From NCBI GenBank assembly GCA_040767965.1, contig JAXGNR010000008.1:1-64000 (forward strand): DNA of 64,000 nucleotides, given 5' to 3'. Position 1 is the stretch's first letter; each line of letters begins with the position of its first letter. The translations under genes and the position numbers were made by a program. The notes below the pieces were generated by a model. The model made no database searches. It had not been told where the DNA came from and worked only from the letters and a program-made list of their open reading frames with translations. Shown here piece by piece: positions 3,810 to 60,226 of the stretch. The stretch comes from Atribacterota bacterium. Lineage in GTDB: Bacteria > Atribacterota > Phoenicimicrobiia > Phoenicimicrobiales > Stramentimicrobiaceae.

Positions 3810-3820
3810 TTTCTCCCCTC

Positions 3821-4033
3821 TTATTCCTTCCTTCCTTCCTTGTAGATATTTTTTATCTTTTCTTTCTTGTTCAGAACATTTTTTATTTCTTCAGCAGCAA
3901 AAACTCTTTCTGCAGCAATCACTTCTCTGTTAACAACTATTGAAGGATCATCATAACTCCTTATTAAGTAATTTTATCAAGATCCTCAACCTTTCTAATT
4001 TCAGTATCTATGCCTGCTGAAGCAACAGCTTGC
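3821..4033 (-). pseudogene. Small thioredoxin-like (MTH895-type redox-active disulfide) protein remnant
   Basis: QAVASAGIDTEIRKVEDLDKIT**GVMMI / SIVVNREVIAAERVFAAEEIKNVL: two stops, a frameshift, and no N-terminal CxxC. Confidence 0.65.
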
Positions 4034-44563: not shown

Positions 44564-44796
44564 ATTAAATTTCATAAAATAGAATATTTAAAAGATGATT
44601 AATAAAATATGAAGAAAACAAATTCTTTCCTTGTAATTAATTCTTAGTAAGAACTGAATAGTTTTAAGGTAAGGATCTGAATACTTATTTATCAGCAAAA
44701 AATAAAGAACAGATTAGTAATTAATAAAAATTGTAAAAAAGCTTAAAAAATAGTATAGTAAATAAGCCAAAATAATTTCTATTAAGTAATTAAAAA

Positions 44797-45603
44797 ATGA
44801 AAAAAAATGAAAATTCTATTGGAATACTGGATTCTGGTTCAGGTGGATTAAGTGTATACAGGGAAATTAAAAAACAACTACCTCAAGAGCACGTTATATA
44901 TTTTGGAGATACTTTTTATTCTCCTTATGGAGGGAAAAAAGAACAGCAAATTTTTGAGAGAGTAAAGATTATTCTAGAGTATCTTATTGCACAAAATATA
45001 AAAACAATTATCATTGCCTGTAATACTGCTGATGTAATTACATTAAATATGCTGCAGGATATATATGAATTTCCTCTTTTTGGAGTAATTCTTCCCGGGG
45101 TCATTGAAGCAATCTCTGCAACTAAAAATAAAAGAATAGCTATTATTGGGACAGAAGTGACCATTCGAAGCAAAATACATACTCAGTTAATTAACAAGAT
45201 TAATCCATCAGTTGCTGTTTTTACTAATCCCTGCAATAATCAAATAATTAAAGAAATGGAAGAAAATTCCTTAAAAGATGTGGAGAAAATAACAGTTTTG
45301 ATAAAAGAATGCCTAAATCCATTCAAAAACAAGAATATCGATACACTTCTGCTAGGATGTACTCACTATCCTTTTTTAAGAAAATATATAAAAAAGGAGT
45401 GTAAGTCCGATATAAATATAGTTGATCCAGCAGGTTTTACAGTAAAACAGGTTTCTTATTGGCTCGCCAAAAATAACCTGTTCAATAGCTTTAAAGACCT
45501 CCCTGATTTATTTTATATCAGTGGTAATCCAGATATATTTTTAGAAACAGCAACAAATCTTTTAGGTTACAAACCAGGAGAGATCAAAAAAATAGATATT
45601 TAA
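44797..45603 (+). CDS. murI: Glutamate racemase
   Basis: DSGSGGLSV, PYG, ACNTA, LGCTHYP. Confidence 0.92.
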   Translation: MKKNENSIGILDSGSGGLSVYREIKKQLPQEHVIYFGDTFYSPYGGKKEQQIFERVKIILEYLIAQNIKTIIIACNTADVITLNMLQDIYEFPLFGVILPGVIEAISATKNKRIAIIGTEVTIRSKIHTQLINKINPSVAVFTNPCNNQIIKEMEENSLKDVEKITVLIKECLNPFKNKNIDTLLLGCTHYPFLRKYIKKECKSDINIVDPAGFTVKQVSYWLAKNNLFNSFKDLPDLFYISGNPDIFLETATNLLGYKPGEIKKIDI

Positions 45604-45703
45604 AGTACGTTAATGAATGCCACAATAAATATTGCTCAAACAAAAGGTTTGTTGTATGCTTTTAAAAACTATTTTGATATTTACAATAATTGGGAAACTT
45701 CAA

Positions 45704-45790
45704 TTCCTTTAATGTTAGTCCAGTGAGGCTGATAAGGAAATAAATAATTAGACCCCCTTGTCAGTTTATACTGAAGGGGGGTTTTATTAT
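45704..45790 (+). ncRNA. PyrR-binding attenuator leader
   Basis: TTCCTTTAA..AGTCCAGTGAGGCT..AAGGAA binding loop; terminator GACCCCCTT...AAGGGGGGTTTTATT. Confidence 0.85.
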
Positions 45791-45871
45791 TTAATAATAT
45801 GCATTGAGAAAAATTACATTTTATTCAGATATTTATAAAAAATCTAAAAAAAAGAAAGAAGGAAGATAATT

Positions 45872-47089
45872 ATGAATTCAAAACATCAACAAGAAGTTGT
45901 TGATTATACCGAACAAGGCTTAATGCAAACCATTATTCTTGGTTTGCAACACGGTTTCACTATGTTTAGTGCTACAGTTTTAGTGCCGATAATCACCGGT
46001 TTAGATATTTCTGTTGCTTTATTGATGGCTGGTATTGGCACTTTGGTTTTCCATTTTGTGACAAAAAACAAAGTTCCTGCTTTTTTAGGATCATCTTTTG
46101 CTTTTATCGCTCCTATCCTTCTGGTTACAGAAAGATTTGGAATGGCATATGCCCTAGGAGGTATTGTAGTTGCCGGGTTAATTTATCTGCTTTTTTCTTT
46201 CCTGGTGAATAATTTTGGACCAGAAAAAATTATTTCTTTTTTCCCGCCGGTTGTAACTGGTCCTGTAATAATGGTTATTGGTTTAAAATTAGCACCCACT
46301 GCAATAGGAATGGCCAGTGAAAATTGGTGGCTTGCTTTGGTAGGATTTGCAATTGTAGTTGTAGTAAGTACTTTTACCCGTGGATTTCTAAAAGTTATTC
46401 CTGTTCTCATGGGTATTGTTGTTGGGTATCTGGTGGCAATGATATTTGGACAGGTTGATTTTTCTTCTGTGATAGAAGCAAAATGGATAGGTTTTCCTCA
46501 GTTTACTATTGCGAAATTTAACTGGAATGCGATTATGATTGTAGCCCCGGTGGCCATTGTAACTGTTATTGAACATATTGGTGACGTGTTAGCAATCGGA
46601 GCAACTACCGAAAAAGATTATGCAAAAGATCCAGGCTTAAACAGAACTTTATTAGGTGATGGTTTGGCAACATCTTTATCGGCTCTTTTAGGTGGACCGG
46701 CAAATACTACTTATTCTGAAAACACCGGAGTATTGGCATTAACAAAAGTATATAATCCTGTAGTAATGCGCATTGCTGCGGTATTTGCCATTATTATTGG
46801 TTTAATACCAAAACTGGGAGCCATTATAGCAACAATTCCCGGTTCTTTAATAGGAGGGATTTCAATTATTCTTTTTGGTATGATTGCTGCGGTTGGTGTC
46901 AGGACTGTAGTAGAAAACAAGGTCAATTTTGAAAAATCCAGAAATTTAATAATTGCAGCCACTATATTAATTTTATCTCTAGGAGGAGTATCAATACCAA
47001 TAGCTCTTGGCAATGGCAGTATTGAAATTGAAGGGATGGCTTTGGGAGCATTGGTGGGTATTGTTTTAAACAAAATAATGCCTGAATAA
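45872..47089 (+). CDS. uraA: Uracil permease (NCS2 family)
   Basis: LGLQH, LGSSFAF, EHIGD, GGPANTTYSENTG. Confidence 0.92.
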   Translation: MNSKHQQEVVDYTEQGLMQTIILGLQHGFTMFSATVLVPIITGLDISVALLMAGIGTLVFHFVTKNKVPAFLGSSFAFIAPILLVTERFGMAYALGGIVVAGLIYLLFSFLVNNFGPEKIISFFPPVVTGPVIMVIGLKLAPTAIGMASENWWLALVGFAIVVVVSTFTRGFLKVIPVLMGIVVGYLVAMIFGQVDFSSVIEAKWIGFPQFTIAKFNWNAIMIVAPVAIVTVIEHIGDVLAIGATTEKDYAKDPGLNRTLLGDGLATSLSALLGGPANTTYSENTGVLALTKVYNPVVMRIAAVFAIIIGLIPKLGAIIATIPGSLIGGISIILFGMIAAVGVRTVVENKVNFEKSRNLIIAATILILSLGGVSIPIALGNGSIEIEGMALGALVGIVLNKIMPE

Positions 47090-47167
47090 AGAATTTATCT
47101 ATCCATAATAAATCGATAATCTTAAAGAAACAAGTCTTTGCTGTTTGTACAAAAGAGTTCTTTTTCA

Positions 47168-47196
47168 TTGACTTGTAAATAGATTTTCATTATAAT
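47168..47196 (+). promoter_or_regulatory. sigma70 promoter of the TTT cluster
   Basis: TTGACT-17-TATAAT followed by the palindrome CACATGTG. Confidence 0.6.
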
Positions 47197-47250
47197 TTCA
47201 CATGTGTGCTAAAACAATAAATTTTTTAAAAAGAAAGGTATTGGATTAAA

Positions 47251-47751
47251 ATGGTTTCCTGGAAAAGAGAAGTTATTGTAGGTATTTGTATAATTTTAGT
47301 ATCAGTTTTTCTTATTATTGATACTAATATAACCGGCGACAGAGTTGGTATAATGCTTGCTGCCCGCAGCAGTACTTATGTTAAACTCTGGATTTATATT
47401 TTAATGTCCTTAACAATGATTTTAATAATAAAGGCAATTCTGAAAAGAGATAACACTAAACCAGTGGCTATTTTTTCATCCACTGTAATAACTAGTGCAA
47501 TTTTGCTTTTTCTTTATATCTATGCCATGCCTAAAATTGGATTTTTTATTTCTACAATGCTTTTTATATTTATGCTGACATCTTATTATGATCTTTATCC
47601 TGTTACAACTTTTTTTAAAACAAAGAAAGCTACTACTAAAATTACTACAGTCATAAAATTGTTTGTATTTTCTCTAGTGATAACTTTCTTTGTACAGTAT
47701 GCTTTTGCAAATATTCTAAGAGTGCGCCTACCACAGGGAATACTTTTTTAA
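47251..47751 (+). CDS. tctB: Tripartite tricarboxylate transporter small TM subunit (TctB family)
   Basis: 4 TMs, IGFFISTMLF, C-terminal LRVRLPQG; next to tctC and tctA. Confidence 0.8.
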   Translation: MVSWKREVIVGICIILVSVFLIIDTNITGDRVGIMLAARSSTYVKLWIYILMSLTMILIIKAILKRDNTKPVAIFSSTVITSAILLFLYIYAMPKIGFFISTMLFIFMLTSYYDLYPVTTFFKTKKATTKITTVIKLFVFSLVITFFVQYAFANILRVRLPQGILF

Positions 47752-47997
47752 TTTAAAAATATTTGCTAAAGAAGATTTAAACCCTTTTTTCGTTTCAAAA
47801 GCGATGAAGATGAAAATGAAATATGTATTAAATATTTAACTGAAATCTGAATTGATTATTCAAAAAAGATCAAAAGAAAGGAGGCGTGTAAAATCTTTTA
47901 AAACAATATTAAGTTAGATTTGTCTAACTTATCTAAAAATAAAACTTATGAAAGATAAATAGTAAAAAGAAAAATAGAGAAAAAAAGGAGATAAATT

Positions 47998-48969
47998 ATG
48001 AAAAATAAAAATTTATTATTTGCCATCATTGTTTTGACAGTTGTCCTTATTACAAGTATAGCTGTTTCGGCACAAGATTATCCAAACCCCAGACAGACTA
48101 TTGAAATAATAGTTCCTTATGCTGCTGGTGGTGGTTCTGATACCCTTACTCGAGTTTCTATGAAATATTTAGATGTTCCTTCACCAATAGCGGTTATAAA
48201 TATTTCAGGTGCAGCTTCAGCAATAGGTACTATGGAAGCTTACAATTCTGTAGCTGATGGATATAGATTGCTATGCCACAATGCTGAAAACTTGGTAGAT
48301 GGTTATCTGGTAGGAACCATGCCTGCCCCAGTCTTTGAAGACCTTGAACCTCTTGCCTGTGTGGTTGATGACCCATATGTCATAGTAGCACCAAAAGATT
48401 CAAAATTTAAAACCTGGGATGAATTTGTAGCTTATGCCAAAGAAAATCCTGGCATTATGTCTTATGCAGGTGGCGGAGTAGGCGGACTTCTTCATTTAAA
48501 TTCCATAAAAATATTCCAGGATGTAGGGATCGAAGTTAATATTGTTCCCACTCAAGGTGGAGCACAAACAAGAACAGCAGTGGCCGGTTCTCATGTTGAT
48601 GCCGGAATCTTAAATGTGTCTGAAGCAAAAGATATGATTGAAGCAGGTGATTTTATTCCTTTATTGGTAAGCTCGCAAGAACGTTCTAAATATTTACCAG
48701 ATGTTCCTTCTGCCGGGGATATAGGTTCAAGTGTAAATTATAGAATTCACAGAGGTTTTTTTGCTCCTCCAGGAACACCTCAGGAAGTAGTAGATTATTG
48801 GGAAGCACAGCTTAAAAGCATAAATGAAAATCCAGAATTCGTAAAAGAAATAGAAGAAACCTTTAATTTCAGCACCAGTTTCCTTAGTGCACAAGAAACC
48901 AAAGAAATGTTAAATGAAATGTATCCAACATGGAAAGCCTTCATGGAAGAAGTTGAAGGAGCAAAATAA
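47998..48969 (+). CDS. tctC: TTT substrate-binding protein (TctC/Bug)
   Basis: Signal peptide, DYP..IIVPYAAGGGSDT, DGY, GG..AVAGSHVD, LPDVP, APPGTP. Confidence 0.92.
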   Translation: MKNKNLLFAIIVLTVVLITSIAVSAQDYPNPRQTIEIIVPYAAGGGSDTLTRVSMKYLDVPSPIAVINISGAASAIGTMEAYNSVADGYRLLCHNAENLVDGYLVGTMPAPVFEDLEPLACVVDDPYVIVAPKDSKFKTWDEFVAYAKENPGIMSYAGGGVGGLLHLNSIKIFQDVGIEVNIVPTQGGAQTRTAVAGSHVDAGILNVSEAKDMIEAGDFIPLLVSSQERSKYLPDVPSAGDIGSSVNYRIHRGFFAPPGTPQEVVDYWEAQLKSINENPEFVKEIEETFNFSTSFLSAQETKEMLNEMYPTWKAFMEEVEGAK

Positions 48970-49000
48970 TAAAAAACACCTATCTGATAAATAGGTAAAA

Positions 49001-49040
49001 TTCGAACCCAGGAAAAATTAAATTACTTCCTGGGTTCGAA
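49001..49040 (+). terminator. Intergenic stem-loop (mRNA stabiliser or attenuator) after tctC
   Basis: TTCGAACCCAGGAA...TTCCTGGGTTCGAA, 14-bp stem. Confidence 0.6.
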
Positions 49041-49136
49041 AAAATATCTCAATTTTAGATATAAAGTTGTACAAGTTTAATATTTTAATCTACTACATTA
49101 TTATTAAAATAAAAATAAAGAATAACAAAATAGAAG

Positions 49137-50660
49137 GTGATACAATTGGCAGATATTTTTGAACTAGTAGGGCTTGGCTTAAAATATTATACAGCAGACC
49201 TGGGTGGAATTATGTTTGTAATGGCAATGGGAACATTGATAGGTCTAATTTTTGGATGCATTCCTGGTCTGACTGCTGCTTTAGCGGTTACTTTATTACT
49301 TCCATTTACTTATGCTATGACTGCTGAAATGGGAATTTCTTTACTTATTGCCTTGTATGTAGGAGGAGTTTCTGGAGGTATATACGCTGCATCATTATTA
49401 AATATTCCAGGTACTCCAGGTTCGCTGGTCACTATTTTCGATGCATATCCTCTGGCAAAGCAAGGCTATGCATCTTTATCCTTAACGGTTAGTCTATTTT
49501 CTTCATTTGTAGGAGGAATCTTTAGCTTTTTTGTGTTGATTTCTCTTGCACCCCAATTATCAAAAATAGCCCTTATGTTTGGTTATTGGGAGTATTTTGC
49601 CATGGGAATACTAGGATTGTGTGTGGTAGTTTCTTTTACTTCAGGGGACACTATTAAAGGACTAATCGGTACTGTCTTGGGGAGCATCATGGCTATGGTC
49701 GGAATGGACCCTTTGACCGGATTAGGTAGGTTTACCTTTGGTCAATGGCAACTTTCAGGCGGATTACCTTTGCTGGCAACACTGATGGGATTTTTTGCTA
49801 TTTGTGAAATTTTCAATCAAATGAAAAATTTGAACATGAAAAAAGAAATGATTACCTTGAAAGAAAAAATAAGAATGTTCCCTCCATTTAATCTGATTAA
49901 ACAGCATAAAATTGTGTTTCTGGTTTCTGCAATAATTGGGACCTGGATTGGCATTCTGCCTGGTATCGGTCAGTCAACAGGCTCTCTGGTTGCTTATAAC
50001 CAGGTAAAACAGATGTCTAAAACTCCTGAAAAATTTGGTAATGGAGCAATTGAGGGTGTTATGGCATCAGAAACAGCCAATAATGCGGTAAACGGGGGAG
50101 CTTTAATCCCTATGATAACGCTGGGTATTCCGGGAGATTTGGTTACTTCAATTTTATTAGGCGGTTTAATTATCCATGGATTACAACCCGGACCAATGCT
50201 ATTTAGAAATAGCAGAGAGCTGGTAGGAGTAATTTTTGTATCTTATTTTTTTGCTAATATTTTAATGTTAATTATTGGTTTTGCCTTAATTAAATTTTTT
50301 ATTTATCTATTAAGAATTTCAGCAAGCAAGCTTTTTCCGATTATTATGGTGATGTGTGTCTTGGGGACCTTTACAGTAAATAACCGCATATTTGATGTCT
50401 GGATACTATTAGCTGCTGGAATAATAGGGTATATTCTTACTGAGATTGGATTTAAGCTGCCACCAATAATTTTGGGATATATCTTGTCCCCTATTATTGA
50501 ACATAATTTTAGAACAGGTATTATAAATTCAAGAGGAAGTTTTTTACCTTTTATTACCAGACCTATTTCAGCAGTAATCCTAGTATTAGCCTTAATTCTT
50601 CTTGTTTACCCGGCAATAGTAGAAAGAAAGAGAAAGAAGTTCAACGCCAGTACCGGTTAG
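49137..50660 (+). CDS. tctA: TTT large TM subunit (TctA)
   Basis: GCIPGLT, NIPGTPGS, GMDP..RFTFG, ASETANNA, LGIPG, GLQPGP. Confidence 0.93.
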   Translation: MIQLADIFELVGLGLKYYTADLGGIMFVMAMGTLIGLIFGCIPGLTAALAVTLLLPFTYAMTAEMGISLLIALYVGGVSGGIYAASLLNIPGTPGSLVTIFDAYPLAKQGYASLSLTVSLFSSFVGGIFSFFVLISLAPQLSKIALMFGYWEYFAMGILGLCVVVSFTSGDTIKGLIGTVLGSIMAMVGMDPLTGLGRFTFGQWQLSGGLPLLATLMGFFAICEIFNQMKNLNMKKEMITLKEKIRMFPPFNLIKQHKIVFLVSAIIGTWIGILPGIGQSTGSLVAYNQVKQMSKTPEKFGNGAIEGVMASETANNAVNGGALIPMITLGIPGDLVTSILLGGLIIHGLQPGPMLFRNSRELVGVIFVSYFFANILMLIIGFALIKFFIYLLRISASKLFPIIMVMCVLGTFTVNNRIFDVWILLAAGIIGYILTEIGFKLPPIILGYILSPIIEHNFRTGIINSRGSFLPFITRPISAVILVLALILLVYPAIVERKRKKFNASTG

Positions 50661-50773
50661 ATGTTTTATATAAAAAATGTGATATTTTTGATTCAAAATA
50701 ATAAAAATAAACATATACCAGGTTAGAAAATGAAGGTCATTTTAGTGAATATATTTTTAATCCTGTTTATTTT

Positions 50774-50820
50774 AACAATAGCAGATGATAGTTTTAAACT
50801 GTCATCTGCTATTGTTTTTT
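50774..50820 (+). terminator. Intrinsic terminator after tctA
   Basis: AACAATAGCAGATGA...TCATCTGCTATTGTT followed by a T tract. Confidence 0.75.
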
Positions 50821-50920
50821 AGATTATTCTTAAAAATAAACTAAAAATTCTTGTAAATTAATCTTTCAAAAGAAGAAAAGGATAAAATAAATTAAAGAAA
50901 AGAGATGTTATCAAATAGGG

Positions 50921-52159
50921 ATGTTATTTCCAAAAAGCAATAGCAAAGAAAAAAAAGAAAATACTGCTTTAATGATTGTTATTTTAATACTTTCAATACC
51001 CTGTTTTGCCTTAAGCTTGGTGCATAATGGTTTTCTTTCATTGCTTCCTTTTGTAAGAGATGATTTTTTACTGACTAGATCGCAAATTGGCTATTATTCT
51101 ACTTTTATCTTTATCAGTGCTTCTCTATTAGCAATTTTTACTGGTGATATTGTTGATAAATTTGGTCCCAAAAAAAGTGTAATAGCCGGAATAATAAGCA
51201 TGAGCTTTCTCTGGCTACTCTATGGGTTTTCCGTTAATTATAACATGCTTTTATTTTTAGCTCTGATAGCAGGAATAGGTTTTAGTATAATAACACCTTC
51301 AGTTAATAAAGGAGTTATGCTGGCAGTTTCTCCTGGCAAAAGAGCAATATCAATGGGAATTACCCAAATGGGATTTGGCTTAGGAGGCATTTTGGGGACC
51401 AGTTTTTTACCACTTTTGGCCAGGATCTATGGCTGGCGATTTGCAGTACAAATTGCGGCTATTTTTGCAATGATAACAGGAGTTCTGGTTTTCAAATATT
51501 ATCAGGAAGTAGATATCCAACAAAAAACAATAATAGAAAGTGATAAAAAAGATACACAAAAATCCTTTAAAGAGAATCTTTGTTTTATTATTAAAAATAA
51601 AAAATTGCTAAAAATCTGCATAGTAGGTACTATTTTTGGTATTTCTGTTGGTGCTGTCCTACCTCACTTTTCAGTATTTCTTACTGAAGACCTTCGTCTG
51701 GCAGTAACTTCTGCAGGTCTGGCTTTTGCAATAATGCAGCTTGGAGGAATAATAAGTCGCCCATTTTGGGGGTGGATTTCTGATAAAATATTTAAAGGCA
51801 ATAGAAATATAAGCCTTTTTGTAATAGGGATTTCCATTGGAATTGTATATCTTCTTTTTGCATTTTTTATCAGTTTAATGCAGGGTAATTTATTTATCAC
51901 ATTTTTATTTTCATTTCTGCTGGGTTGTACTTCCAGCGGATGGGCTGGGGTACATTTCGTTAGTGTGGTTGAGTTTGCCGGAGACAAGCTGGCTGGAATA
52001 GCCACAGGTTTGTCCCTGGTTTTTCTTAGGATTGGCATGCTGGCTGCACCTCCCATTTTTGGTTTTATTGCTGATATAAATGGTAATTACCAATTTTGCT
52101 GGTTAACTTTTGGAATTTTTATAACAATAGTGTCTTTTTTATTTTTACAAAAAGATTAA
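50921..52159 (+). CDS. MFS transporter
   Basis: GDIVDKFGPK motif A, WGWISDK, PPIFGFIAD; about 12 TMs. Confidence 0.9.
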   Translation: MLFPKSNSKEKKENTALMIVILILSIPCFALSLVHNGFLSLLPFVRDDFLLTRSQIGYYSTFIFISASLLAIFTGDIVDKFGPKKSVIAGIISMSFLWLLYGFSVNYNMLLFLALIAGIGFSIITPSVNKGVMLAVSPGKRAISMGITQMGFGLGGILGTSFLPLLARIYGWRFAVQIAAIFAMITGVLVFKYYQEVDIQQKTIIESDKKDTQKSFKENLCFIIKNKKLLKICIVGTIFGISVGAVLPHFSVFLTEDLRLAVTSAGLAFAIMQLGGIISRPFWGWISDKIFKGNRNISLFVIGISIGIVYLLFAFFISLMQGNLFITFLFSFLLGCTSSGWAGVHFVSVVEFAGDKLAGIATGLSLVFLRIGMLAAPPIFGFIADINGNYQFCWLTFGIFITIVSFLFLQKD

Positions 52160-52263
52160 AAATTAGATTATATTCTTTCTATTAAATTAAAGAGACTAAC
52201 TAAAAAATATAAAATAGGATTATAATAGTAAAAATAATAAAAAAAAGGAGGAATTATAAAAAC

Positions 52264-53322
52264 GTGAGCGGGAAAAGAGTGAATCATAAAACATTAAATG
52301 AATTTTGTGCAAAAGCATTAGAAAAAGCAGGTCTTTCCAAAGAAAATGCCAACATAGCTGCTGATATTTTAGTAGAATGTGATATAAGGGGAGTTTATTC
52401 TCATGGAGTAGTTGCTCTTCCTTATTACATCAAACAGATGAAATTAGGAGGAATTAATGTACAAGCCGAGCCAGCCATTGAAAAAGAAGGCCTCTCTTAT
52501 ACTCTTCTTAACGGCAACGGTGGAATGGGTCAACTAAATGCTTATAAGGCTACCAAAATTGCCATTGAAAAAGCTAAAAAATCTGGAGTTGCAATTTCAA
52601 CTGTTAAAAACAGCAATCATTTTGGTGCCGGGGCAACTTATGCCCTTATGGCTGCCAGAGAAGGAATGATAGGGCAGGCTATTAGTAATGCACCTCCTAC
52701 CATGAGTGTTACCGGAGGAAAAGGAAGAAATATTGGGAATAATCCTTTTTCACTGGCTTCTCCAGCAGGGAAGCATTCTCCTGTAGTGCTGGATATGGCA
52801 ATGAGTGTGGTTGCTGCAGGTAAAATAGCAAATGCTGCTGTTGCCGGAGAGTCAATTCCAAAAGGATGGATGTTAGACAAAGACGGGCATGACACAAGTG
52901 ATCCTAAAGCTTTCCAGGAAGGAGGAGCATTATTACCCTTTGGAGGATATAAAGGTTATGGTCTCGCTGCATTCGTGGAAATATTAGCAGGTATTATGCC
53001 AGGTGCTGGAATTACTCATCAGGTTACAAGCTGGAAAAGAAAACCTGATGCTCCTACTCAAACAGGACATTTTATTCAGGTTATAAATGTGGATGCATTT
53101 ATGCCGATAGCTGAATTCAAGTCCCGTATTGATGAGTTTATTAATGAAATTCACAATTATCCTAGAGTTGATGGCTGTGAAAAAATATTTGTTCCTGGAG
53201 AAATTGAAAATATCACTGCCGAAAAAGCACTTCAGGAAGGTGTTTATTTAGCTGAAGGCACAGCCAAAGGATTAATTGAATTAGCAAAAGAAACAGGTCT
53301 TGATTATTCTTTTCTTTCATGA
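52264..53322 (+). CDS. Ldh_2-family 2-hydroxyacid oxidoreductase (malate/L-lactate/sulfolactate/ureidoglycolate DH family)
   Basis: DIRGVYSHG, SNHFGAG, GNNPFS, LDMAMS, PFGGYKGYGL, PGE. Confidence 0.92.
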   Translation: MSGKRVNHKTLNEFCAKALEKAGLSKENANIAADILVECDIRGVYSHGVVALPYYIKQMKLGGINVQAEPAIEKEGLSYTLLNGNGGMGQLNAYKATKIAIEKAKKSGVAISTVKNSNHFGAGATYALMAAREGMIGQAISNAPPTMSVTGGKGRNIGNNPFSLASPAGKHSPVVLDMAMSVVAAGKIANAAVAGESIPKGWMLDKDGHDTSDPKAFQEGGALLPFGGYKGYGLAAFVEILAGIMPGAGITHQVTSWKRKPDAPTQTGHFIQVINVDAFMPIAEFKSRIDEFINEIHNYPRVDGCEKIFVPGEIENITAEKALQEGVYLAEGTAKGLIELAKETGLDYSFLS

Positions 53323-53343
53323 AAAACATGGTAAGATAAAAAA

Positions 53344-53395
53344 ATAAATGCTTAAGAAAAATTACTCCAAAAATGAATTTTTCTTAAGCATTTAT
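53344..53395 (+). terminator. Hairpin after the Ldh_2 gene
   Basis: ATAAATGCTTAAGAAAAATT...AATTTTTCTTAAGCATTTAT, 20-bp stem. Confidence 0.65.
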
Positions 53396-53631
53396 AAGTA
53401 AAAAAGTTTACACTTGATCTGTTTTCATTTTTTTTAAACTATATTTATAAGTGTAATTTTGTTATACTGCTTATATAAATATTAAATATAAATACAAATA
53501 ACATAAGTTTCTTTCTCAACTAGCTTCATAACCTTATAAAATAAAAATTTAATCAATATTAAAAAAGAAATTTATTTAACTCTTATAATTCAACATTACA
53601 ACAAAACAAAACAGAAAGAAAGGGTAATATA

Positions 53632-55317
53632 ATGAAAACATGGGAATTAATTGCAAATATGATAAAAGAACAAGGGATTGAATATGTATTTGGCATAGGA
53701 GATACCGATTTACAGTTATATGCAGATCAAGTTAAAGGATTAAATGCTATTAACCTCAGATACGAAGGTTCTGCTCCTTTTATGGCAATGGCTTATTCCC
53801 GGTTAACAGGCAAGCCTGGGGTATGTAGCGGCAGCTCTGGCCCGGGTGTAGCGAGTCTGGTGCCAGGAGCATTAGAAGCTTTTTCTGGATGTGTTCCAAT
53901 GATAATTTTTGCACCTTCTATTAATCAAAAAACAGAAGGAATGGGTGAATTCCAGGAATGTGATCAAATAGGAATGATGAAACCTGTTACTAAGTGGAGT
54001 GCTCGTATTACTGACATAGAAAGAATACCATGGTTTGTGGAAAGGGCATTTTCTATTGCCATGAATGGTCAGCCAGGCCCTGTGTTTTTAGAGATGCCTA
54101 TTAACTTAGGAGGCAAATTAACCAGTGGCATTCTTGTTGATGTTGAACCTTTACAAAACTATAAACCAGTTAAAAAGATCAGAACAGCCGGGGATCCTAT
54201 TCTAATAAAAGATGCTGTTGAATTATTACATTCAGCCAAATATCCGGTAATAATTGCCGGAAATGGCCTTGTTTCTGCAAAAGCACATAATAACTTTAGA
54301 AATTTCATAGAATTATTGGGAATTCCCTTTTTAACTACCCCCGGAGGTAGAGGTATTGTAGAAGAAAGTCACCCGCTTTCTTTAGGTGTATGTGGAATTT
54401 ATAGGACAGAACATGCCAAAAATTACTACAAAGTTGCAGATTTGGTAATCTCTATAGGTAGCAGAAACGAAGGATTTCAATCTCACAGCTGGGCTGATTT
54501 TCCACTAGGAGCGAAATTTATACAAATTGATATTTCTCCTTTTGAGATTGGGAGAAACTGGAAACCAGATGTGGCTATTGTTGGAGATGCTGATTTGGTA
54601 TTACAGCAGCTTTTGGAGAACCTTAAAAGTGGATATTCTCATATACTGAATAATCAGAGCTATTTGGAAAGAGAAAGAATTCAAGAATTAGCTAAAAAGA
54701 AAGAAAACTATGAAAAAGAAGTAGATAAAGAATGTTTATCTGAAGAAATTCCTATTCCGGCAAAACGAATTGTTCATGAAGTAAGTAAGGTCTTTGGAGA
54801 AAATACGATCCTGGTAAACGAAAATGGGTCACAAGATACATGGTCATATTGTTACCCTTACTATAAAATACAAAAAGGCTCCTCATGTATACCTGTTGCT
54901 GAACAAACATGCATGGGGATGGGTGTTGTCGGTGCAATTGCAGCCAAACTGGTAAATCCTGACAAAAAAGTTGTTTGTATTGTTGGAGACGGAGCATTCC
55001 AGATGTATATGAAAGAACTGCCTACAGCAGCTCAATACAAAGCAGGTTGTACCTGGATAGTTTTAAATAATTCTGCCTTTGGATGGATTAAATACAATCA
55101 ATTAAAATTCGCAGGAAAAGATATTTCTACATTTAAAATTCAACCTGATTTTGTCAAATGGGCAGAAGCCTGTAATTGTTCCGGGATAAGAGTAGAACAA
55201 CCTTCAGAAACCAAACCAGCTCTGGAAAAAGCATTGCAATTAAACGAAAAGGGAATACCTGTGGTTCTTGATATAATAACCGGCTTAGATCTTTCCCATT
55301 TTGAGAAAGCGCTATAA
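53632..55317 (+). CDS. Thiamine diphosphate-dependent enzyme (AHAS/decarboxylase/Xsc superfamily)
   Basis: RYEGSA (catalytic Glu), GPG, FQECDQ, PGPVFLEMP, GDGAFQM...LNNSAFG ThDP motif. Confidence 0.88.
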   Translation: MKTWELIANMIKEQGIEYVFGIGDTDLQLYADQVKGLNAINLRYEGSAPFMAMAYSRLTGKPGVCSGSSGPGVASLVPGALEAFSGCVPMIIFAPSINQKTEGMGEFQECDQIGMMKPVTKWSARITDIERIPWFVERAFSIAMNGQPGPVFLEMPINLGGKLTSGILVDVEPLQNYKPVKKIRTAGDPILIKDAVELLHSAKYPVIIAGNGLVSAKAHNNFRNFIELLGIPFLTTPGGRGIVEESHPLSLGVCGIYRTEHAKNYYKVADLVISIGSRNEGFQSHSWADFPLGAKFIQIDISPFEIGRNWKPDVAIVGDADLVLQQLLENLKSGYSHILNNQSYLERERIQELAKKKENYEKEVDKECLSEEIPIPAKRIVHEVSKVFGENTILVNENGSQDTWSYCYPYYKIQKGSSCIPVAEQTCMGMGVVGAIAAKLVNPDKKVVCIVGDGAFQMYMKELPTAAQYKAGCTWIVLNNSAFGWIKYNQLKFAGKDISTFKIQPDFVKWAEACNCSGIRVEQPSETKPALEKALQLNEKGIPVVLDIITGLDLSHFEKAL

Positions 55318-55367
55318 ATAAAATTATTTTCTTAAAACGAGAATGAAACAAGGAGGTCTATTAAACA

Positions 55368-57236
55368 ATGACTAATAATTCAGCAATACAGCTAAGAGTA
55401 TCATTAAATGACCAGACTTATAAGGTTGAAAATATTAAAGAAAGCATCCTCAAAGACTATTTAGGAGGCGTAGGTTATGCAGCCAAGCTTTTGTATGATG
55501 AGCTTGAGCCGAAGATAGACCCTTTGAGTGAAAAAAATAAAATAATCTTTGCTGTCGGTCCTTTAACATCATACCAGATTCCAGGAGGGGGAAGTGTTGA
55601 GATTTGTTTTAAATCACCACTTACCAATGCCTGGGGAGAAGCCAGATGTGGGGGAGATTTTGGTCCAGAACTGAAAAAAGCCGGCTATGAATGTCTTATT
55701 CTGGAAGGAAAATCTTCTAAGCCGGTTTATTTAGTTATTGATGATGAAAATGTTTATTTTCGAGATGCCAGTCATTTAACTGGAAAAATGGTTTCTGAAA
55801 AGACCAGGATTATCCTGAACGAATTAAATGATACTAATTTTTCAGTAATGACTATTGGAATAGCAGGAGAGAATTTAGTAAGAATAGCGGCGGTAATGCT
55901 GGAAGGAAGAGCTGCCGGCAGATGTGGCGCCGGAGCAGTAATGGGAGCAAAAAACATTCTGGCTGTTGCTGTTAAAGGTACAAAAAAGATAATTCCTCAG
56001 AATAAAGAAGAATATAATGCTGCTCTCAAAGAAGCACGACAGATAATTAAAGATAGTGATACTGCCAAAGGTTTTCGTGAATTTGGCACTATTGGCGATA
56101 TGGCCGGTAATGATGCTGCTGGTGATTGGCCTACTAAGAATTGGCAATCTAACAGCTGGGGCAAAGGAGAAGAATTATTTGATTATTACAATAAAAATAA
56201 CTTTGTAAGAAATCAGATGTGTTATAAGGGATGTCCTATTGCCTGCGGAAGGATTGCCCGGGTAAAAGAAGGAGTATACAAGACTCCGGAGCATGAAGGG
56301 GCAGAATATGAAACTGTCAGTGCTTTTACAGCCTTTGTGCTTAATCAAGACGTAGATGCTGCTATCAATTGCAGTTATTTATGCAACGAATTTGGCATTG
56401 ATACAATTTCCACAGGGGCACTGATTGCCTTTGCTATGGAATGTTATGAGCATAATCTGCTATCTCCGGCAGAAGTCGAACAACTGGATCTGTCCTGGGG
56501 TAATGCCCAGATCCTGCCTGTCTTGACAGAAAAGATAGCTCGCAGGGATGGCATAGGAAACTTACTGGCAGAAGGAGTTGTCAGAGCTGCCGAAAAAATA
56601 GGACACAATGCCCGGGAATTTGCTATTCATGCCAAAGGATTAGAGGGTCCGGCCCACGATCCCCGTTCAGGGAAACTGCTGGCAGTAACCTATGGTACTG
56701 GAAACAGAGGGATGTGTCATATTCATCCTTTAGAAGGAATGGCTTATGATTCCGGTAAGATGACCTGGGGGATGCTCTCTCATGGAGTACCCGACCCAAA
56801 TCAGCTGCACCGCTGGGATGAGATAGGAAAAGGCAAGATTACCAAGATCCTACAGGATGGCTTAGTCATGCCTGATGTTCTTGGAGTATGTAAATTTTTT
56901 ATGTATGCAGGATTGACTTTAGGAAATTACGCTAAAATATTATCAGCTTTAACCGGCTGGAAAATAGAAGATAAGGATTTGCTCCAAATAGGAGAAAGGG
57001 TGAATAATTTACAAAGATTATTCAATATCAGAGAAGGGTTTAGTAAAAAAGATGACAATATTCCTGATAGAGTAAAAAACCTTCCCTCTTTCGGTATTTA
57101 TCAAAAAGAAGAACGGTGTGCAATTACCCGGTATGATGAGATGCTGGAAGAATATTATATTGCCCGTGGCTGGGATCTGATAACAGGGAAACCGAAAGCT
57201 GAAAAGCTGGCAGAACTTGGATTGTCTGATTATTAA
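55368..57236 (+). CDS. aor: Aldehyde:ferredoxin oxidoreductase (W/Mo-pterin AOR family)
   Basis: KSPLT, RAAGRCGAGAVMGAKN, CYKGCPIAC, EYET, GIDTIS, KGLE..HDPR, YYIARGWD. Confidence 0.93.
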   Translation: MTNNSAIQLRVSLNDQTYKVENIKESILKDYLGGVGYAAKLLYDELEPKIDPLSEKNKIIFAVGPLTSYQIPGGGSVEICFKSPLTNAWGEARCGGDFGPELKKAGYECLILEGKSSKPVYLVIDDENVYFRDASHLTGKMVSEKTRIILNELNDTNFSVMTIGIAGENLVRIAAVMLEGRAAGRCGAGAVMGAKNILAVAVKGTKKIIPQNKEEYNAALKEARQIIKDSDTAKGFREFGTIGDMAGNDAAGDWPTKNWQSNSWGKGEELFDYYNKNNFVRNQMCYKGCPIACGRIARVKEGVYKTPEHEGAEYETVSAFTAFVLNQDVDAAINCSYLCNEFGIDTISTGALIAFAMECYEHNLLSPAEVEQLDLSWGNAQILPVLTEKIARRDGIGNLLAEGVVRAAEKIGHNAREFAIHAKGLEGPAHDPRSGKLLAVTYGTGNRGMCHIHPLEGMAYDSGKMTWGMLSHGVPDPNQLHRWDEIGKGKITKILQDGLVMPDVLGVCKFFMYAGLTLGNYAKILSALTGWKIEDKDLLQIGERVNNLQRLFNIREGFSKKDDNIPDRVKNLPSFGIYQKEERCAITRYDEMLEEYYIARGWDLITGKPKAEKLAELGLSDY

Positions 57237-57271
57237 AAATATTTTATAAATTTTTTTACGAAAGCGAAAAA

Positions 57272-57511
57272 ATGAATATAAAAGTAAAAATTAGACTTTA
57301 TACTAGTTTAAAAAAATATTCAATTAAATTAAATCAAGATAGCACCCTGGTTTTAAATAAAAAAATAACCCTGGAAGATTTATCCCGCTATCTAGAAATA
57401 CCAGAAGACCTAGGCCGGGTATACCTGGTAGATAAATTCCCAAAAGAAAAAGATTATTTTTTAAAAGATGGAGATGAAGTAAAAATATTTCCTTTTTTAG
57501 GTGGAGGGTAA
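57272..57511 (+). CDS. MoaD/ThiS-like sulfur carrier
   Basis: LKDGDEVKIFPFLGGG with C-terminal GG; directly after aor. Confidence 0.88.
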   Translation: MNIKVKIRLYTSLKKYSIKLNQDSTLVLNKKITLEDLSRYLEIPEDLGRVYLVDKFPKEKDYFLKDGDEVKIFPFLGGG

Positions 57512-57708
57512 AAAGTTTTTTTAGAAAATGAAATAATTAAAATTATAAAAAGCTTTTCAGTTGAAGCAAGTAAATATTTATTTCTTTTAAAAGAGAAAGT
57601 TGCCTTAAAAAGGAACAATTTAAAAATATCATCATATAGATAAGAATTTTTTAGACAATATAATTTCTTTGTCAAATAAAATTCACATGATGTGATAATC
57701 AAGAGGAT

Positions 57709-57912
57709 TACATTGGTTTTATTGTATCTTTGGCTCTTTTTTGTGCCATGGTATCTTTTATTTTCAGTGGACTAATCATTCCCTTTATTTTCAGTAAGCT
57801 AAAGCTTGATCCGGCAAATGTAAGTGGTCCAATTGATACAATTATTCAGGATATTATCAGTATTACTATTTATTTTAGCATTGCCCATATCTTACTTTAT
57901 ATTTTCAGATAG
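57709..57912 (+). pseudogene. mgtE: C-terminal fragment of an MgtE-family Mg2+ transporter
   Basis: IPFIFSKLKLDPANVSGPIDTIIQDIISITIYF matches the MgtE DPA..SGP...D motif; N-terminus absent; stop TAG supplied by the IS end. Confidence 0.7.
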
Positions 57913-59638
57913 TGTAAAATTTCAGTAGGTGTTTTAAGGATATCACTTGTCAGTAGGTCAACAAAAAAGGTAGACTTACCTCATAGAACAAAACAATAGA
58001 AAAAGAAGAAACATTCTTTTTCTAAAAGGAGGTAAATCTACCTGATGAAAGACTTATCTTTAACTATTACATTACCGTCTCTACAAGTGACTATAGCAGA
58101 AGACGAGCTGGATTTCCAGCACCTGGAAAAATTTGTTTTTCACCTAACTAAAATTATAGGCCAGCACATTCTAACCAGCATATTGCAGTTCCTTGACAAC
58201 CAATTAAGAAAAGAAAGGCAAAGAGGCAAACTTTCCAACTGTGGAAAGCGCAGCAAATATCTCTTGACCCTTCTGGGCAATATCAGCTATCAGAAGCATC
58301 TCTACCGGGATCAAGAAGGCCAGTACCACTGTCTTTTGGATGAAAAGCTTGGCCTAACACCCAATCAGCGTATGAGCACCCATTATCAGAAGATTACCGG
58401 CTTGTTCTCTTTTCTGGCCGGCAGCTACCGTAATGCCCAGAGATTTCTGGAGTACTGTTATGGGGATTCAGTAAGTTTTGAATGTATGCGCAGACAGGTA
58501 CAATCCCAGGGTACTAGTATTCAACAACTAGAAGAATACGCCTTTGACCAACAATTAGAAGAAACCCTCAAATCAACCTCTATCCCAGTTCAATCAGATC
58601 CCATCTATCTGGAGGTAGACGGTACCATGATTCACCTGCAAAAACAAACAAAGAAAAAGGCAGAACTAAAACTGGCTATCATTCACAAAGGAAAGGAAAA
58701 GAGATACCCTTTGGGAAGCTCGGATGCCAGAAAGCTCAAAGATAAACTAGCCTATGCCGGCCTTGGTCCAGCAGATGAATTTATGGCTAAGGTCAGTCTC
58801 TTAGCCGAAAACAAATACCAGGTGTATGACCATAACCTTATCCTGGTAGGAGGAGATGGGGCCAGCTGGATCAAAGACGGCGCCCAGGATTATTTCCCGA
58901 ACTCCATCTATCAGTTATGCCCCTTTCACCTAAAACGAAAATTAACCCAGAGTCTTTCCTATAACCCTAAAAGAAAATCCCAGATCAGCTCGCTCTTGCA
59001 AGAAGGCAACATCTCAGAAGCGCTCCTTTTATTGGAAGAAGAAAAAACTAAGAATTCTAAGAAAGAAGATGAATTAAATGAGCTGACTACCTATCTTGTC
59101 AACAATTATGATGGAATCAAGGCCATAGATCGCCTGAAAGAGGAAGGATTGCCTGTTGATACCATGGGTGCCATAGAAGGTAATATCGATAAGATCCTGG
59201 CCAACCGCTTCAAGAAACGAGGGATGAGCTGGTCTACTTCCGGGGCACTGAACCTGGCCAAGGTGGGACAGTTGATCGTAAATGATGACTGGGATGACTT
59301 CTGGCCCATAAAAGAGGAGGAGCTGGCCTTCAAACAGGTCAACCCCCAAAAGGGCGTTCACCTACCCCAAGAGAATAAATATGATAAACAGTATTCTCTT
59401 CCGGTATTGGTAGGCCCTCACCAGGATAGAAGCTGGGTAAAACAGTTAAAGGAGCTAATCAGTATTCATTAATCAAAAATTGATAAAAAAAAGAATATAG
59501 GAGCGTATTATTAGAATGTATTGCTATTATTATTCTCGGTTTGCTGTTAGAATTTACCTATAATCACTTACACTTTAACTTAATTTAATTTCCATAATTT
59601 TTGAGGTAAGGAAAAGTACCCACAAGTAGTTGACACTA
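57910..59638 (+). mobile_element. ISLre2-family insertion sequence
   Basis: Imperfect IRs TAGTGTAAAATTTCAGTAGGT (from 57910) and revcomp TAGTGTCAACTACTTGTGGGT (ending 59638), 14/21; higher GC than flanks. Confidence 0.75.
58045..59472 (+). CDS. ISLre2-family (UPF0236) transposase
   Basis: YLEVDG, GGDGASWI, LCPFHL, GAIEGNI..RFKKRGMSWSTSGA. Confidence 0.88.
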   Translation: MKDLSLTITLPSLQVTIAEDELDFQHLEKFVFHLTKIIGQHILTSILQFLDNQLRKERQRGKLSNCGKRSKYLLTLLGNISYQKHLYRDQEGQYHCLLDEKLGLTPNQRMSTHYQKITGLFSFLAGSYRNAQRFLEYCYGDSVSFECMRRQVQSQGTSIQQLEEYAFDQQLEETLKSTSIPVQSDPIYLEVDGTMIHLQKQTKKKAELKLAIIHKGKEKRYPLGSSDARKLKDKLAYAGLGPADEFMAKVSLLAENKYQVYDHNLILVGGDGASWIKDGAQDYFPNSIYQLCPFHLKRKLTQSLSYNPKRKSQISSLLQEGNISEALLLLEEEKTKNSKKEDELNELTTYLVNNYDGIKAIDRLKEEGLPVDTMGAIEGNIDKILANRFKKRGMSWSTSGALNLAKVGQLIVNDDWDDFWPIKEEELAFKQVNPQKGVHLPQENKYDKQYSLPVLVGPHQDRSWVKQLKELISIH

Positions 59639-59772
59639 ACTTTTATACAAAAATGATTGACAGAATAATAAAAGGAAATTTATAATTATAATGTAAAAAA
59701 GAAAACAGTAATTCACAAGAGCATAAGGGGTTCGCCTATAAAGCAAATATAGAGCAAAGAAGCTCTAAGCTG

Positions 59773-59857
59773 AGAAAGGTTAACCATCGGTAACGATGGG
59801 ACGCAAAGTTACGGGTCCCGCTCCATTTAACCCCCTCAATGGGACTGCCGGACTGCC
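59773..59857 (+). ncRNA. c-di-GMP-I (GEMM) riboswitch
   Basis: AAAGGTTAACCATCG-GTAA-CGATGGGACGCAAAGTTACGGGTCCC...GGGACTGCCGGACTGCC; upstream promoter TTGACA 59657 / TATAAT 59681. Confidence 0.8.
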
Positions 59858-60048
59858 TGCTTCCTCTCCCTAATAATCTTTATAAATTTCTTTAAATATA
59901 TTACATTAGAAGCCATTTTTAAGAGCACCATAATATAACCATAGATTGTTTTCTATTTTTTCTGTATATTATTAGACCTAAAAACAGAGGACGGTTATCT
60001 GTTTGACATCTTTTTCGTTTGTTCAGAATCATTTGGTATAGTAGAAAA

Positions 60049-60082: not shown

Positions 60083-60226
60083 AAGGTTACTTTGATTCTA
60101 TTTTATAATTATTTATGTTTATAGAAACATTTATGCACTCAGGACAATTGTCTTAACAGTATCCCCAACCCGGAATGAACCTGAATGGTTAGTTATATTA
60201 AAATCATTCTTTTAGGAGGTTTGAAT

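Follow-up and report, generated by a model that had tools for sequence, protein, structure and literature searches.

A TTT and Ldh_2 gene cassette beside a ThDP enzyme-AOR-MoaD module in an Atribacterota genome: a possible route of 2-hydroxyacid oxidation

The stretch described here, positions 47168-57511 of a 64,000-nucleotide (nt) window (the whole piece of DNA that was analysed, contig C8:1-64000) of an Atribacterota genome (G000; 2.33 Mb, 98% complete), carries eight genes, all intact and on the + strand. Gene identities were taken from the listing of open reading frames (ORFs) and from Pfam and NCBIfam profile scans of the window proteins. The genes encode a tripartite tricarboxylate transporter (TTT; tctB, tctC and tctA), a major facilitator superfamily (MFS) carrier, an Ldh_2-family dehydrogenase, a thiamine diphosphate (ThDP) enzyme, an aldehyde:ferredoxin oxidoreductase (AOR) and a MoaD-like protein, in agreement with the gene list of the original prediction for this DNA. 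They fall into three units: tctBCA, MFS-Ldh_2 and ThDP-AOR-MoaD. We tentatively read the locus as a lineage-specific TTT and Ldh_2 cassette beside a portable ThDP-AOR-MoaD module, which together would convert an imported 2-hydroxy(di)carboxylate to a one-carbon-shorter acid, CO2, NAD(P)H and reduced ferredoxin (probability roughly 0.4).

In the proposed scheme, tctBCA would import a carboxylate and the Ldh_2 protein would interconvert 2-hydroxyacid and 2-oxoacid with NAD(P). The ThDP enzyme, which resembles acetohydroxyacid synthase (AHAS) and oxalyl-CoA decarboxylase (Oxc), may then free an aldehyde, whether by decarboxylating the 2-oxoacid or through a different ThDP-dependent C-C cleavage. 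The AOR would turn this aldehyde into an acid while reducing ferredoxin, the ThiS/MoaD-like protein would supply its pterin cofactor, and the MFS carrier may move the organic anion, by product export or by antiport. As a generic scheme, the succession of hydroxyacid, oxoacid, aldehyde and acid that had been put forward for these genes is chemically plausible, and the chemistry of the genes is complementary. Gene content, co-orientation, short gaps and the retention of the catalytic Glu and binding motif of the ThDP enzyme all speak for this reading, and in this Atribacterota of landfill and digester habitats the three units probably cooperate. The substrate is more likely to be an ordinary 2-hydroxy mono- or dicarboxylate (a candidate being the pair 2-hydroxyglutarate/2-oxoglutarate) than sulfolactate. 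All of the substrates are inferred here, as are the formation of an aldehyde by the ThDP enzyme, the direction in which the MFS carrier works and the coupling of the units.

The link between the first two units is clearest at the level of paralogues. Nine Ldh_2 paralogues, including that of the window, are present in G000, and six of these have a TTT gene within 6 kb; the mean under random placement is 0.87, and six was reached in only 7 of 100,000 trials (P = 7e-5). In relatives of G000, 8 of 64 Ldh_2 matches are found within 4 kb of a tctA. A cassette on contig C15 of G000 (Table 1) combines Ldh_2, TTT genes and an AOR that is 37-40% identical to the window AOR, and its Ldh_2-tctA-AOR order recurs in three relatives (G014:C55, G015:C26 and G017:C4). 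In this bacterial family the coupling of a TTT importer to Ldh_2, at times with an AOR as well, is a genuine theme, and the association proposed for the window stands at class level, in the form of paralogous cassettes in G000 and its relatives. This theme speaks for a functional connection between the first two units, and a connection to the AOR becomes believable. The C15 cassette itself has an AOR but no ThDP enzyme as a source of its aldehyde.

Table 1. Features of the window and related loci in this and other genomes
Feature	Position or locus	Strand	Evidence or content
tctB, small membrane subunit of TTT	47251-47751	+	PF07331, 42.5 bits (cut-off 29.1)
tctC, secreted substrate-binding protein of TTT	47998-48969	+	PF03401, 135 bits
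tctA, large membrane subunit of TTT	49137-50660	+	PF01970, 452 bits
MFS organic-anion transporter	50921-52159	+	PF07690, 168 bits
Ldh_2-family NAD(P)-dependent 2-hydroxyacid/2-oxoacid dehydrogenase (predicted)	52264-53322	+	PF02615, ~397 bits
ThDP enzyme, 561 aa, three domains	53632-55317	+	PF02776, 84.5 bits; PF00205, 133.5 bits; PF02775, 117.3 bits
AOR, single subunit	55368-57236	+	AFOR_N, 238.3 bits; AFOR_C, 389.1 bits
ThiS/MoaD-family protein, 79 aa, C-terminal GGG	57272-57511	+	PF02597, 30.1 bits (cut-off 22.5)
Promoter-like site upstream of tctB	47168-47196	+	TTGACT-17-TATAAT, 11/12 consensus positions; consensus match alone
Intrinsic-terminator-like hairpin 3' of tctA	50774-50816	+	20-bp stem, 3-nt loop, T run
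AT-rich hairpin 3' of Ldh_2	53344-53395	+	No T run; not called by terminator scan
PyrR-binding attenuator, left boundary	45702-45789	+	Rfam RF00515, 61.5 bits (gathering score 54)
NCS2 uracil-type permease, left boundary	45872-47089	+	PF00860, 322 bits; uracil permease model, 384 (below cut-off 477)
MgtE C-terminal remnant, 60 aa, right boundary	57730-57912	+	PF01769, match to profile positions 75-125 only
ISLre2-family transposase, right boundary	58045-59472	+	NF033529, 218 bits (cut-off 200)
Intact tctA genes of G000	C4:121575, C4:394423, C6:27068, C6:114958, C7:56073, C7:71942, C7:83368, C7:91699, C8:49215 (window), C12:41510, C15:10133, C15:21670, C15:27756, C15:29880		
Decayed tctA loci of G000	C18:896-2161, C4:243039-244128, C9:32338-33195		8, 9 and 9 in-frame stops, respectively
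C15 cassette (L184)	G000:C15:4693-14697		Zn-ADH, creatininase-family, Ldh_2, nitroreductase, 150-aa protein, two tctC, tctB, tctA, AOR, GntR/FCD regulator
AOR loci with a DHDPS-family gene	L207, L212-L217, L222, L223, L227-L229, L231		

TTT systems consist of a TctA with 12 transmembrane segments, a small TctB and a secreted TctC binding protein, and their usual gene order is C-B-A. In the window, all three proteins score above the Pfam cut-offs and are encoded together, although in the order B-C-A, and the N-terminus of TctC is hydrophobic and signal-peptide-like. The best relatives of TctC in the PDB are TTT binding proteins (65-105 bits), including BugD and a terephthalate-binding protein; no orthologue of TctC was found among 40 related genomes (best match 35% identity). 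The 18 TctA matches in G000 correspond to 14 intact genes and three decayed loci. About 17 TTT loci and 24 tctC candidates are present in 2.33 Mb. By comparison with these 14 intact genes, the 40 relatives have 0-8 tctA matches each. The expanded TTT set is also undergoing erosion, as seen in the three decayed tctA, two of which (on C18 and C4) adjoin Ldh_2 paralogues. Whatever the substrate, this genome-wide pattern of TTT and Ldh_2 genes is informative on the diet of the organism. A search of full-text literature, most subscription journals being outside its reach, returned nothing on Atribacter with tripartite tricarboxylate, nor on Ldh_2 with tripartite tricarboxylate.

The Ldh_2 protein is full length (396.6 bits, with residues 7-336 aligned to positions 2-331 of the 333 in PF02615). 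It scores below every NCBIfam cut-off, including those for sulfolactate dehydrogenase (277 versus 500 bits), PRK10098 (202 versus 336), DlgD (167 versus 316) and the AllD models TIGR03175 (232 versus 496) and PRK15025 (233 versus 356). Its best PDB chain is 1v9n (248 bits), a P. horikoshii protein deposited as malate dehydrogenase, followed by 2x06, the M. jannaschii sulfolactate dehydrogenase (215 bits). That the nearest solved relatives are archaeal proteins deposited under the names of malate and sulfolactate dehydrogenase fits acidic 2-hydroxyacids and a TTT importer. No Ldh_2 orthologue above 43% identity was found in the 40 relatives or in a scan of the genome collection. The MFS carrier has NCBIfam matches to PgtP, galactonate, lactate and oxalate/formate types, all of which are sub-threshold.

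The ThDP enzyme has the features of the POX/AHAS-like three-domain superfamily, the hallmarks of which are a catalytic Glu and a GDG...NN (ThDP/Mg) motif: in addition to the three domains, an alignment to BbmA shows the GDG...NN motif as well as the Glu (in YEGSA). All NCBIfam scores are below cut-off. The best is that to AHAS, and for the biosynthetic AHAS large subunit (TIGR00118) the enzyme reaches 355.5 versus 538 bits. There is no ilvN-like small-subunit gene beside it, as the ThDP gene has intergenic DNA upstream and the AOR gene downstream; G000 encodes three other AHAS-like paralogues. In a ranking of the best 60 of 86 matched PDB sequences (E <= 2.9e-33), BbmA (261 bits) precedes Oxc and 2-hydroxyacyl-CoA lyase (HACL; 233-209 bits), then AHAS and glyoxylate carboligase (Gcl; 202-190 bits), then pyruvate oxidase and cyclohexanedione hydrolase (140-128 bits). 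No chain named pyruvate, indolepyruvate or benzoylformate decarboxylase occurs among these 60. Within this ranking, the ThDP enzyme lies nearest to the AHAS/Oxc/HACL/Gcl branch. In each of the reaction classes of these nearest relatives, an aldehyde or activated aldehyde is either formed or consumed, which fits an AOR partner and is no proof of simple decarboxylation. The step from oxoacid to aldehyde and CO2 that had been assigned to this enzyme is chemically plausible, but the AHAS/Oxc-like affinity leaves simple decarboxylation as a presumption.

BbmA (PDB 8x3x, 8x3y and 8xod) belongs to the same three-domain fold family, aligns over residues 5-553 and keeps the Glu and GDG...NN, although its sequence is divergent. 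Nothing relevant on the function of BbmA/CsmA was found in the full-text literature searched. Two more specific identities were considered and rejected. Gcl, suggested by the TIM-barrel neighbours of orthologous genes, is contradicted by a PRK11269 score of 275.8 versus 791 bits and by the retained catalytic Glu, which genuine Gcl is not known to have; the TIM-barrel protein of one relative (G001) scores only 51 bits against the hydroxypyruvate isomerase model. A dione hydrolase of the IolD or Cdh type was suggested by IolB-, IolE- and IolG-like neighbours in relatives. Cdh reaches only 130 bits in the PDB ranking, and the window has no such neighbours; this identity is retained solely as part of the lyase variant discussed below.

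Both AOR domains are full length (profile positions 4-199 of 199 for AFOR_N and 2-385 of 385 for AFOR_C), placing the protein in the AOR family. Its best PDB chain is the P. furiosus AOR (1aor; 396 bits over residues 8-622), ahead of 8c0z, titled tungsten-containing aldehyde:ferredoxin oxidoreductase (315 bits), and the window enzyme would be expected from its family membership to use a tungsten pterin cofactor and ferredoxin as acceptor. It shares with Pyrococcus furiosus AOR the same two full-length Pfam domains, but is bacterial, likely from a mesophilic habitat, and encoded next to a ThDP enzyme and a ThiS/MoaD-like gene. Loci with an AOR orthologue of 54-74% identity number 34 (33 plus that of G017). 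The 79-aa ThiS/MoaD gene lies 3' of the AOR gene in 10 of these and another ThiS-family gene lies 5' of it in 6 more, so that the ThiS/MoaD-like protein is, on gene neighbourhood, a conserved companion of this AOR clade. G000 itself has five full-length AOR-family genes and one partial gene. It also has an AOR-family pseudogene with several in-frame stops (G000:C4:762876-763985).

The other neighbours of the AOR clade vary. A DHDPS-family gene is found in 13 of the 34 loci (Table 1), usually with a DAO flavoprotein, a Pyr_redox_2/BFD protein and a 2Fe-2S protein, a set typical of D-hydroxyproline dehydrogenase; these loci also carry proline-racemase-family and AcnX genes, and the AOR of one of them (L207) is 72% identical to that of the window. 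The aldehyde of the bacterial hydroxyproline pathway is 2-oxoglutarate semialdehyde, and this would be the aldehyde for the AOR in the DHDPS-type loci, where most NCBIfam scores are below cut-offs. In such an anaerobe pathway, the AOR may stand in for the NAD(P)-dependent 2-oxoglutarate semialdehyde dehydrogenase. E1/E2 components of 2-oxoacid or acetoin type occur in 5 of the 34 loci. In G015 and G017, the AOR-MoaD pair lies 3' of E1alpha, E1beta, SDR, E2 and a TRAP transporter. AOR orthologues of at least 72% identity are found in 3 of the 40 relatives (G001, G015 and G017). The occurrence of AOR orthologues beside other enzymes expected to yield aldehydes fits recruitment of the AOR as an aldehyde sink, and the clade looks, from its sequence contexts, like a portable sink joined to differing aldehyde-forming enzymes, with an AHAS-like ThDP partner being exceptional.

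Relatives of the ThDP enzyme are numerous. More than 120 database clusters at 60-78% identity have generic names only ("acetolactate synthase", "ThDP-binding protein"), and the Protein Atlas returns generic acetolactate-synthase-like clusters only. The genome collection has 69 ThDP loci, 47 of which are at 56-77% identity (in Atribacterota, Dehalococcoidia, Aerophobetes and Spirochaetota); matches of ~49% occur in Bathyarchaeia and lower ones in the remaining loci. For both the ThDP and AOR proteins, the nearest named relatives are metagenome-assembled genomes (MAGs) labelled Atribacterota. The 69 loci, with flanks of up to 10 kb (many contigs being shorter), were searched with ten window proteins, and neighbours were clustered for the 47 loci with a ThDP identity of at least 55%, the other 22 being left out. 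An AOR paralogue of 39% identity is present in one ThDP locus (L013) and MFS proteins of 26-27% identity in three.

ThDP orthologues of at least 71% identity are found in 6 of the 40 relatives (G001, G003, G009, G015, G017 and G019). Three of these also have the AOR, but the two genes are adjacent only in G001:C58 (the same sequence as locus L001, and counted once). The ThDP-AOR-MoaD adjacency does recur, with identities of 71, 74 and 53%, but in this single relative. The ThDP cluster of G015 is of a LacI/IclR type and includes URO-D-like, Gfo/Idh/MocA, Zn-ADH, creatininase-family, xylose-isomerase-like TIM-barrel, TRAP DctPQM and KduI/IolB genes; G009 and G017 have the same genes next to ThDP (TRAP-to-Zn-ADH clusters and the TIM barrel). 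In G003, the ThDP gene is 9 kb downstream of another TTT system (48% TctA), with a TIM barrel, a Liv-type ABC system, a cyclase, a racemase and an M20 peptidase in between. In G001, G015 and G009, the gene immediately 5' of ThDP encodes a TIM barrel. In G017 (C12, locus L164, ~3582-3939) it is a remnant, cut to the first 47 and last 72 residues of the gene that is intact in G015 and G009. Three queries found no homologue of this TIM barrel in the genome of the window. Dehalococcoidia ThDP genes have variable neighbours: a two-subunit UxaA/GarD-like dehydratase in nine loci, a PGDH_C dehydrogenase in seven, methylmalonyl-CoA mutase in four (L014, L026, L029 and L030), a family III CoA-transferase in two (L030, which has both, and L043), and also a lactate/oxalate-formate-type MFS, DUF1614 and phosphotriesterase. 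The UxaA/GarD-like dehydratase was considered as a possible SuyAB-like enzyme, and its only NCBIfam match is a sub-threshold one to galactarate dehydratase.

Several observations weigh against a shared pathway, and it is quite possible that the three units are unrelated neighbours, a mobile ThDP-AOR-MoaD module having been inserted beside one of many TTT importers and one of many Ldh_2 dehydrogenases. Strong hairpins stand between the units, downstream of tctA and of Ldh_2. At the orthologue level the set is not co-conserved, an outcome that the original prediction had named as speaking against it, and it does not behave as one conserved operon: Ldh_2 or TTT genes are present in the fetched flanks of none of the 69 ThDP loci, orthologous AOR and MoaD lie beside ThDP in only one of the 69 (L001), an AHAS-like ThDP gene accompanies only one of the 34 AOR loci besides that of the window, and G015 and G017 carry their ThDP and AOR orthologues on different contigs, in different clusters. 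Of the genomes searched, only G000 has this Ldh_2 and this TctC. ThDP orthologues sit among sugar-type genes (TIM barrel, KduI/IolB, Gfo/Idh/MocA, Zn-ADH, TRAP and UxaA-like dehydratase) rather than hydroxyacid genes, and the ThDP enzyme is itself, on its best PDB matches, nearer to carboligases and acyl-CoA lyases (AHAS, Gcl, Oxc/HACL and BbmA) than to classical 2-oxoacid decarboxylases. In C15-type cassettes, Ldh_2 and AOR are joined without any ThDP enzyme, and of the six TTT genes near Ldh_2 paralogues, two are decayed tctA. Recent juxtaposition would also fit the MgtE remnant and ISLre2 transposase directly downstream of the window cluster and the integrase-core (rve) ORF downstream of the G001 copy (28.7 bits, below the Pfam cut-off of 32.6). 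As a weak hint in the same direction, the contigs of two DNA metagenomes diverge to the left of 57521, and with ~17 TTT loci in the genome, chance nearness to a TTT is not rare. Against this view, the nearness of TTT and Ldh_2 is far above chance in G000 and recurs in relatives, Ldh_2-TTT-AOR is itself a conserved type of cassette, and all of the genes are co-oriented with complementary chemistry.

In an unlikely variant, the ThDP enzyme would act instead as a lyase or carboligase (2-hydroxyacyl-CoA lyase-like, acyloin- or 1,2-dione-cleaving, or AHAS/Gcl-like), with the AOR dealing with its aldehyde substrate or product and with Ldh_2 and TTT in a different step or pathway. The ranking of solved relatives, with BbmA followed by Oxc and 2-hydroxyacyl-CoA lyase/synthase and then by AHAS and Gcl, agrees with it, as do the CoA-transferase and methylmalonyl-CoA mutase genes of Dehalococcoidia loci and the position of AOR orthologues 3' of acetoin-type E1/E2 ThDP systems in G015 and G017. 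The TIM-barrel, KduI/IolB, Gfo/Idh/MocA and Zn-ADH neighbours of the orthologues resemble a set for cyclitol or sugar catabolism, in which the ThDP hydrolase IolD forms an aldehyde. However, the window cluster has no CoA-transferase, CoA-ligase, IolE, IolB or IolG-type gene, the TIM-barrel homologue is missing from its genome in the searches described above, cyclohexane-1,2-dione hydrolase scores far below AHAS or Oxc, and the catalytic Glu is present, which is not known of genuine Gcl. The sulfolactate route of the original prediction, in which TTT would import sulfolactate for conversion to sulfopyruvate (by a ComC-type Ldh_2), sulfoacetaldehyde and, by the AOR, sulfoacetate for export by the MFS carrier, is highly improbable. 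Its gene families do match sulfolactate sets of other organisms (SlcHFG among TTT systems and ComC in Ldh_2), no NCBIfam model scores higher with the Ldh_2 protein than that for sulfolactate dehydrogenase, and 2x06 is its second-best solved relative. The score to this model (NF040650) is nevertheless 276-277 versus 500 bits, the window protein being fourth among nine paralogues that all lie at 226-316 bits; in a control, 1 of 14 named genomes was over the cut-off. No ComD-type sulfopyruvate decarboxylase (TIGR03845) was found at E <= 0.001 in this 98%-complete genome, and ComDE is a split alpha/beta enzyme, as opposed to the single three-domain protein of the window. No protein exceeds the Xsc cut-off (TIGR03457, 676 bits), and at ~284-285 bits the window ThDP enzyme is below paralogues on C4 (315) and C5 (306). 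The cluster has no sulfo-lyase, sulfite exporter or other sulfite-handling gene, and the ThDP and AOR orthologues occur elsewhere in sugar-, hydroxyproline- or acetoin-type contexts. Four TauE-family genes are over cut-off, all on other contigs, and are uninformative, as the family is also found in 13 of 14 control genomes.

The proposed conversion of a 2-hydroxy(di)carboxylate has partial parallels in known systems. Anaerobic phenylalanine degradation in Aromatoleum aromaticum, which combines phenylpyruvate decarboxylase with a tungsten AOR, is likewise CoA-free, with a ThDP step from 2-oxoacid to aldehyde, an AOR-family step to the acid and a MoaD-like gene by the AOR. The window ThDP enzyme, in contrast, is AHAS/Oxc-like by its best PDB matches and apparently not of the indolepyruvate/phenylpyruvate decarboxylase type, its AOR is a lone subunit nearer to 1aor than to 8c0z, and the oxoacid would come from the Ldh_2 dehydrogenase and not from a transaminase. 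In the cyanobacterial bypass, an AHAS-like 2-oxoglutarate decarboxylase acts with succinic semialdehyde dehydrogenase. In that bypass, an enzyme annotated as acetolactate synthase decarboxylates a 2-oxoacid and the semialdehyde is oxidised to a dicarboxylate, a likeness drawn by description only; it provides a precedent for an AHAS-like decarboxylase feeding an aldehyde oxidiser, although the oxidiser in the window would be a ferredoxin-linked AOR and not an NAD(P) dehydrogenase. The SlcHFG-SlcC/ComC-SuyAB system of sulfolactate degradation in Chromohalobacter salexigens similarly has a TTT importer by an Ldh_2 dehydrogenase, for import and NAD(P)-linked oxidation of an acidic 2-hydroxyacid. 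The window differs in that its Ldh_2 protein falls short of the sulfolactate dehydrogenase cut-off, sulfo-lyase and sulfite exporter genes are lacking, and the downstream enzymes are the ThDP enzyme and the AOR.

If the units cooperate, they would provide an uncultured fermenter with a CoA-independent oxidation of imported hydroxyacids from which low-potential electrons are gained, and a large ThDP clade, one often met in subsurface Dehalococcoidia, would receive its first function. A broader proposal, which we consider doubtful, is that this TTT-multiplied lineage has joined its importers to Ldh_2 dehydrogenases and, at this locus, subjects an imported 2-hydroxy(di)carboxylate to CoA-free oxidative decarboxylation by a tungsten AOR and a new, widespread AHAS-like clade, which would act as 2-oxoacid decarboxylase and has members at 56-78% identity in subsurface Dehalococcoidia, Aerophobetes and Spirochaetota. 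Such a route would bypass 2-oxoacid:ferredoxin oxidoreductases, with energy obtained via ferredoxin and hydrogen or Rnf. If the units are mere neighbours, the finding is an ordinary one, and serves as a warning that chemically tidy gene strings in MAGs rich in insertion sequences (IS) need co-conservation checks. The newness is modest: known families in a new combination, around a widespread ThDP clade with generic names.

Sequence nearly identical to all or part of the stretch is present in 20 metagenome runs, which belong to 13 studies and come from landfill, leachate, bioreactor, digester and wastewater. Contigs of one DNA run, X2, bridge the MFS-Ldh_2, Ldh_2-ThDP, ThDP-AOR and AOR-MoaD junctions with 1-4 mismatches each, indicating that the gene order is not an assembly artefact of one record; X2 may hold the same population. 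In two DNA metagenomes, contigs match from 57521 onward and have other sequence before it, which hints weakly at strains with a different left neighbour. The depth of X2 contigs is 65-152 in three of four bins of 57924-59600, compared with 1-24 over the cluster. Joints in the contig comparison all have sides of 20-26 letters at 90% likeness and are not counted as evidence. Two metatranscriptome studies also provide contigs that match, with 0-1 mismatches, parts of tctC, tctA, Ldh_2, ThDP and AOR (tctA and Ldh_2 in X15 only). Those over the tctC region (47828-48201, 48241-48460 and 48680-49053) have 0 mismatches and another (53607-53831) spans the ThDP start codon; such RNA-library contigs are no proof of transcription, strand or co-transcription, and the uncovered stretches are uninformative.

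The division into several transcription units that had been suggested from hairpins is supported by their strength. The tctA hairpin has a dG of -29.2 kcal/mol (z -9.4) and the Ldh_2 hairpin one of -20.9 kcal/mol (z -7.4), with 0 of 200 shuffles as good in either case, and ~235 nt of intergenic DNA separate the latter from the ThDP gene. Within the third unit the gaps are short: 50 nt from ThDP to AOR and 35 nt from AOR to the MoaD-like gene. No significant hairpin was found 3' of the MoaD-like gene (z -0.75). Of the promoter-like sites in 44500-58100, the one upstream of tctB is the best, and its first nucleotide is the start coordinate (47168) that had been assigned to the locus. As a class, promoter-like sites are not enriched in the region (53 found versus 56.6 expected).

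On the left, the cluster is bounded by the NCS2 permease, which the PyrR-binding attenuator upstream of it marks as a pyrimidine transporter unrelated to the cluster; glutamate racemase and the glutamate synthase large subunit are encoded further left. An Rfam scan revealed no riboswitch or other RNA family inside 47168-57511, both of its matches lying outside. The first of these is the attenuator. The second, at 59769-59861, is of the c-di-GMP-I riboswitch type (RF03167; 55.7 bits, just under the gathering score of 59; E 4.9e-11), and downstream of it is the gene for a 298-aa protein with Sad1/UNC and F5/8 type C domains (60185-61081).

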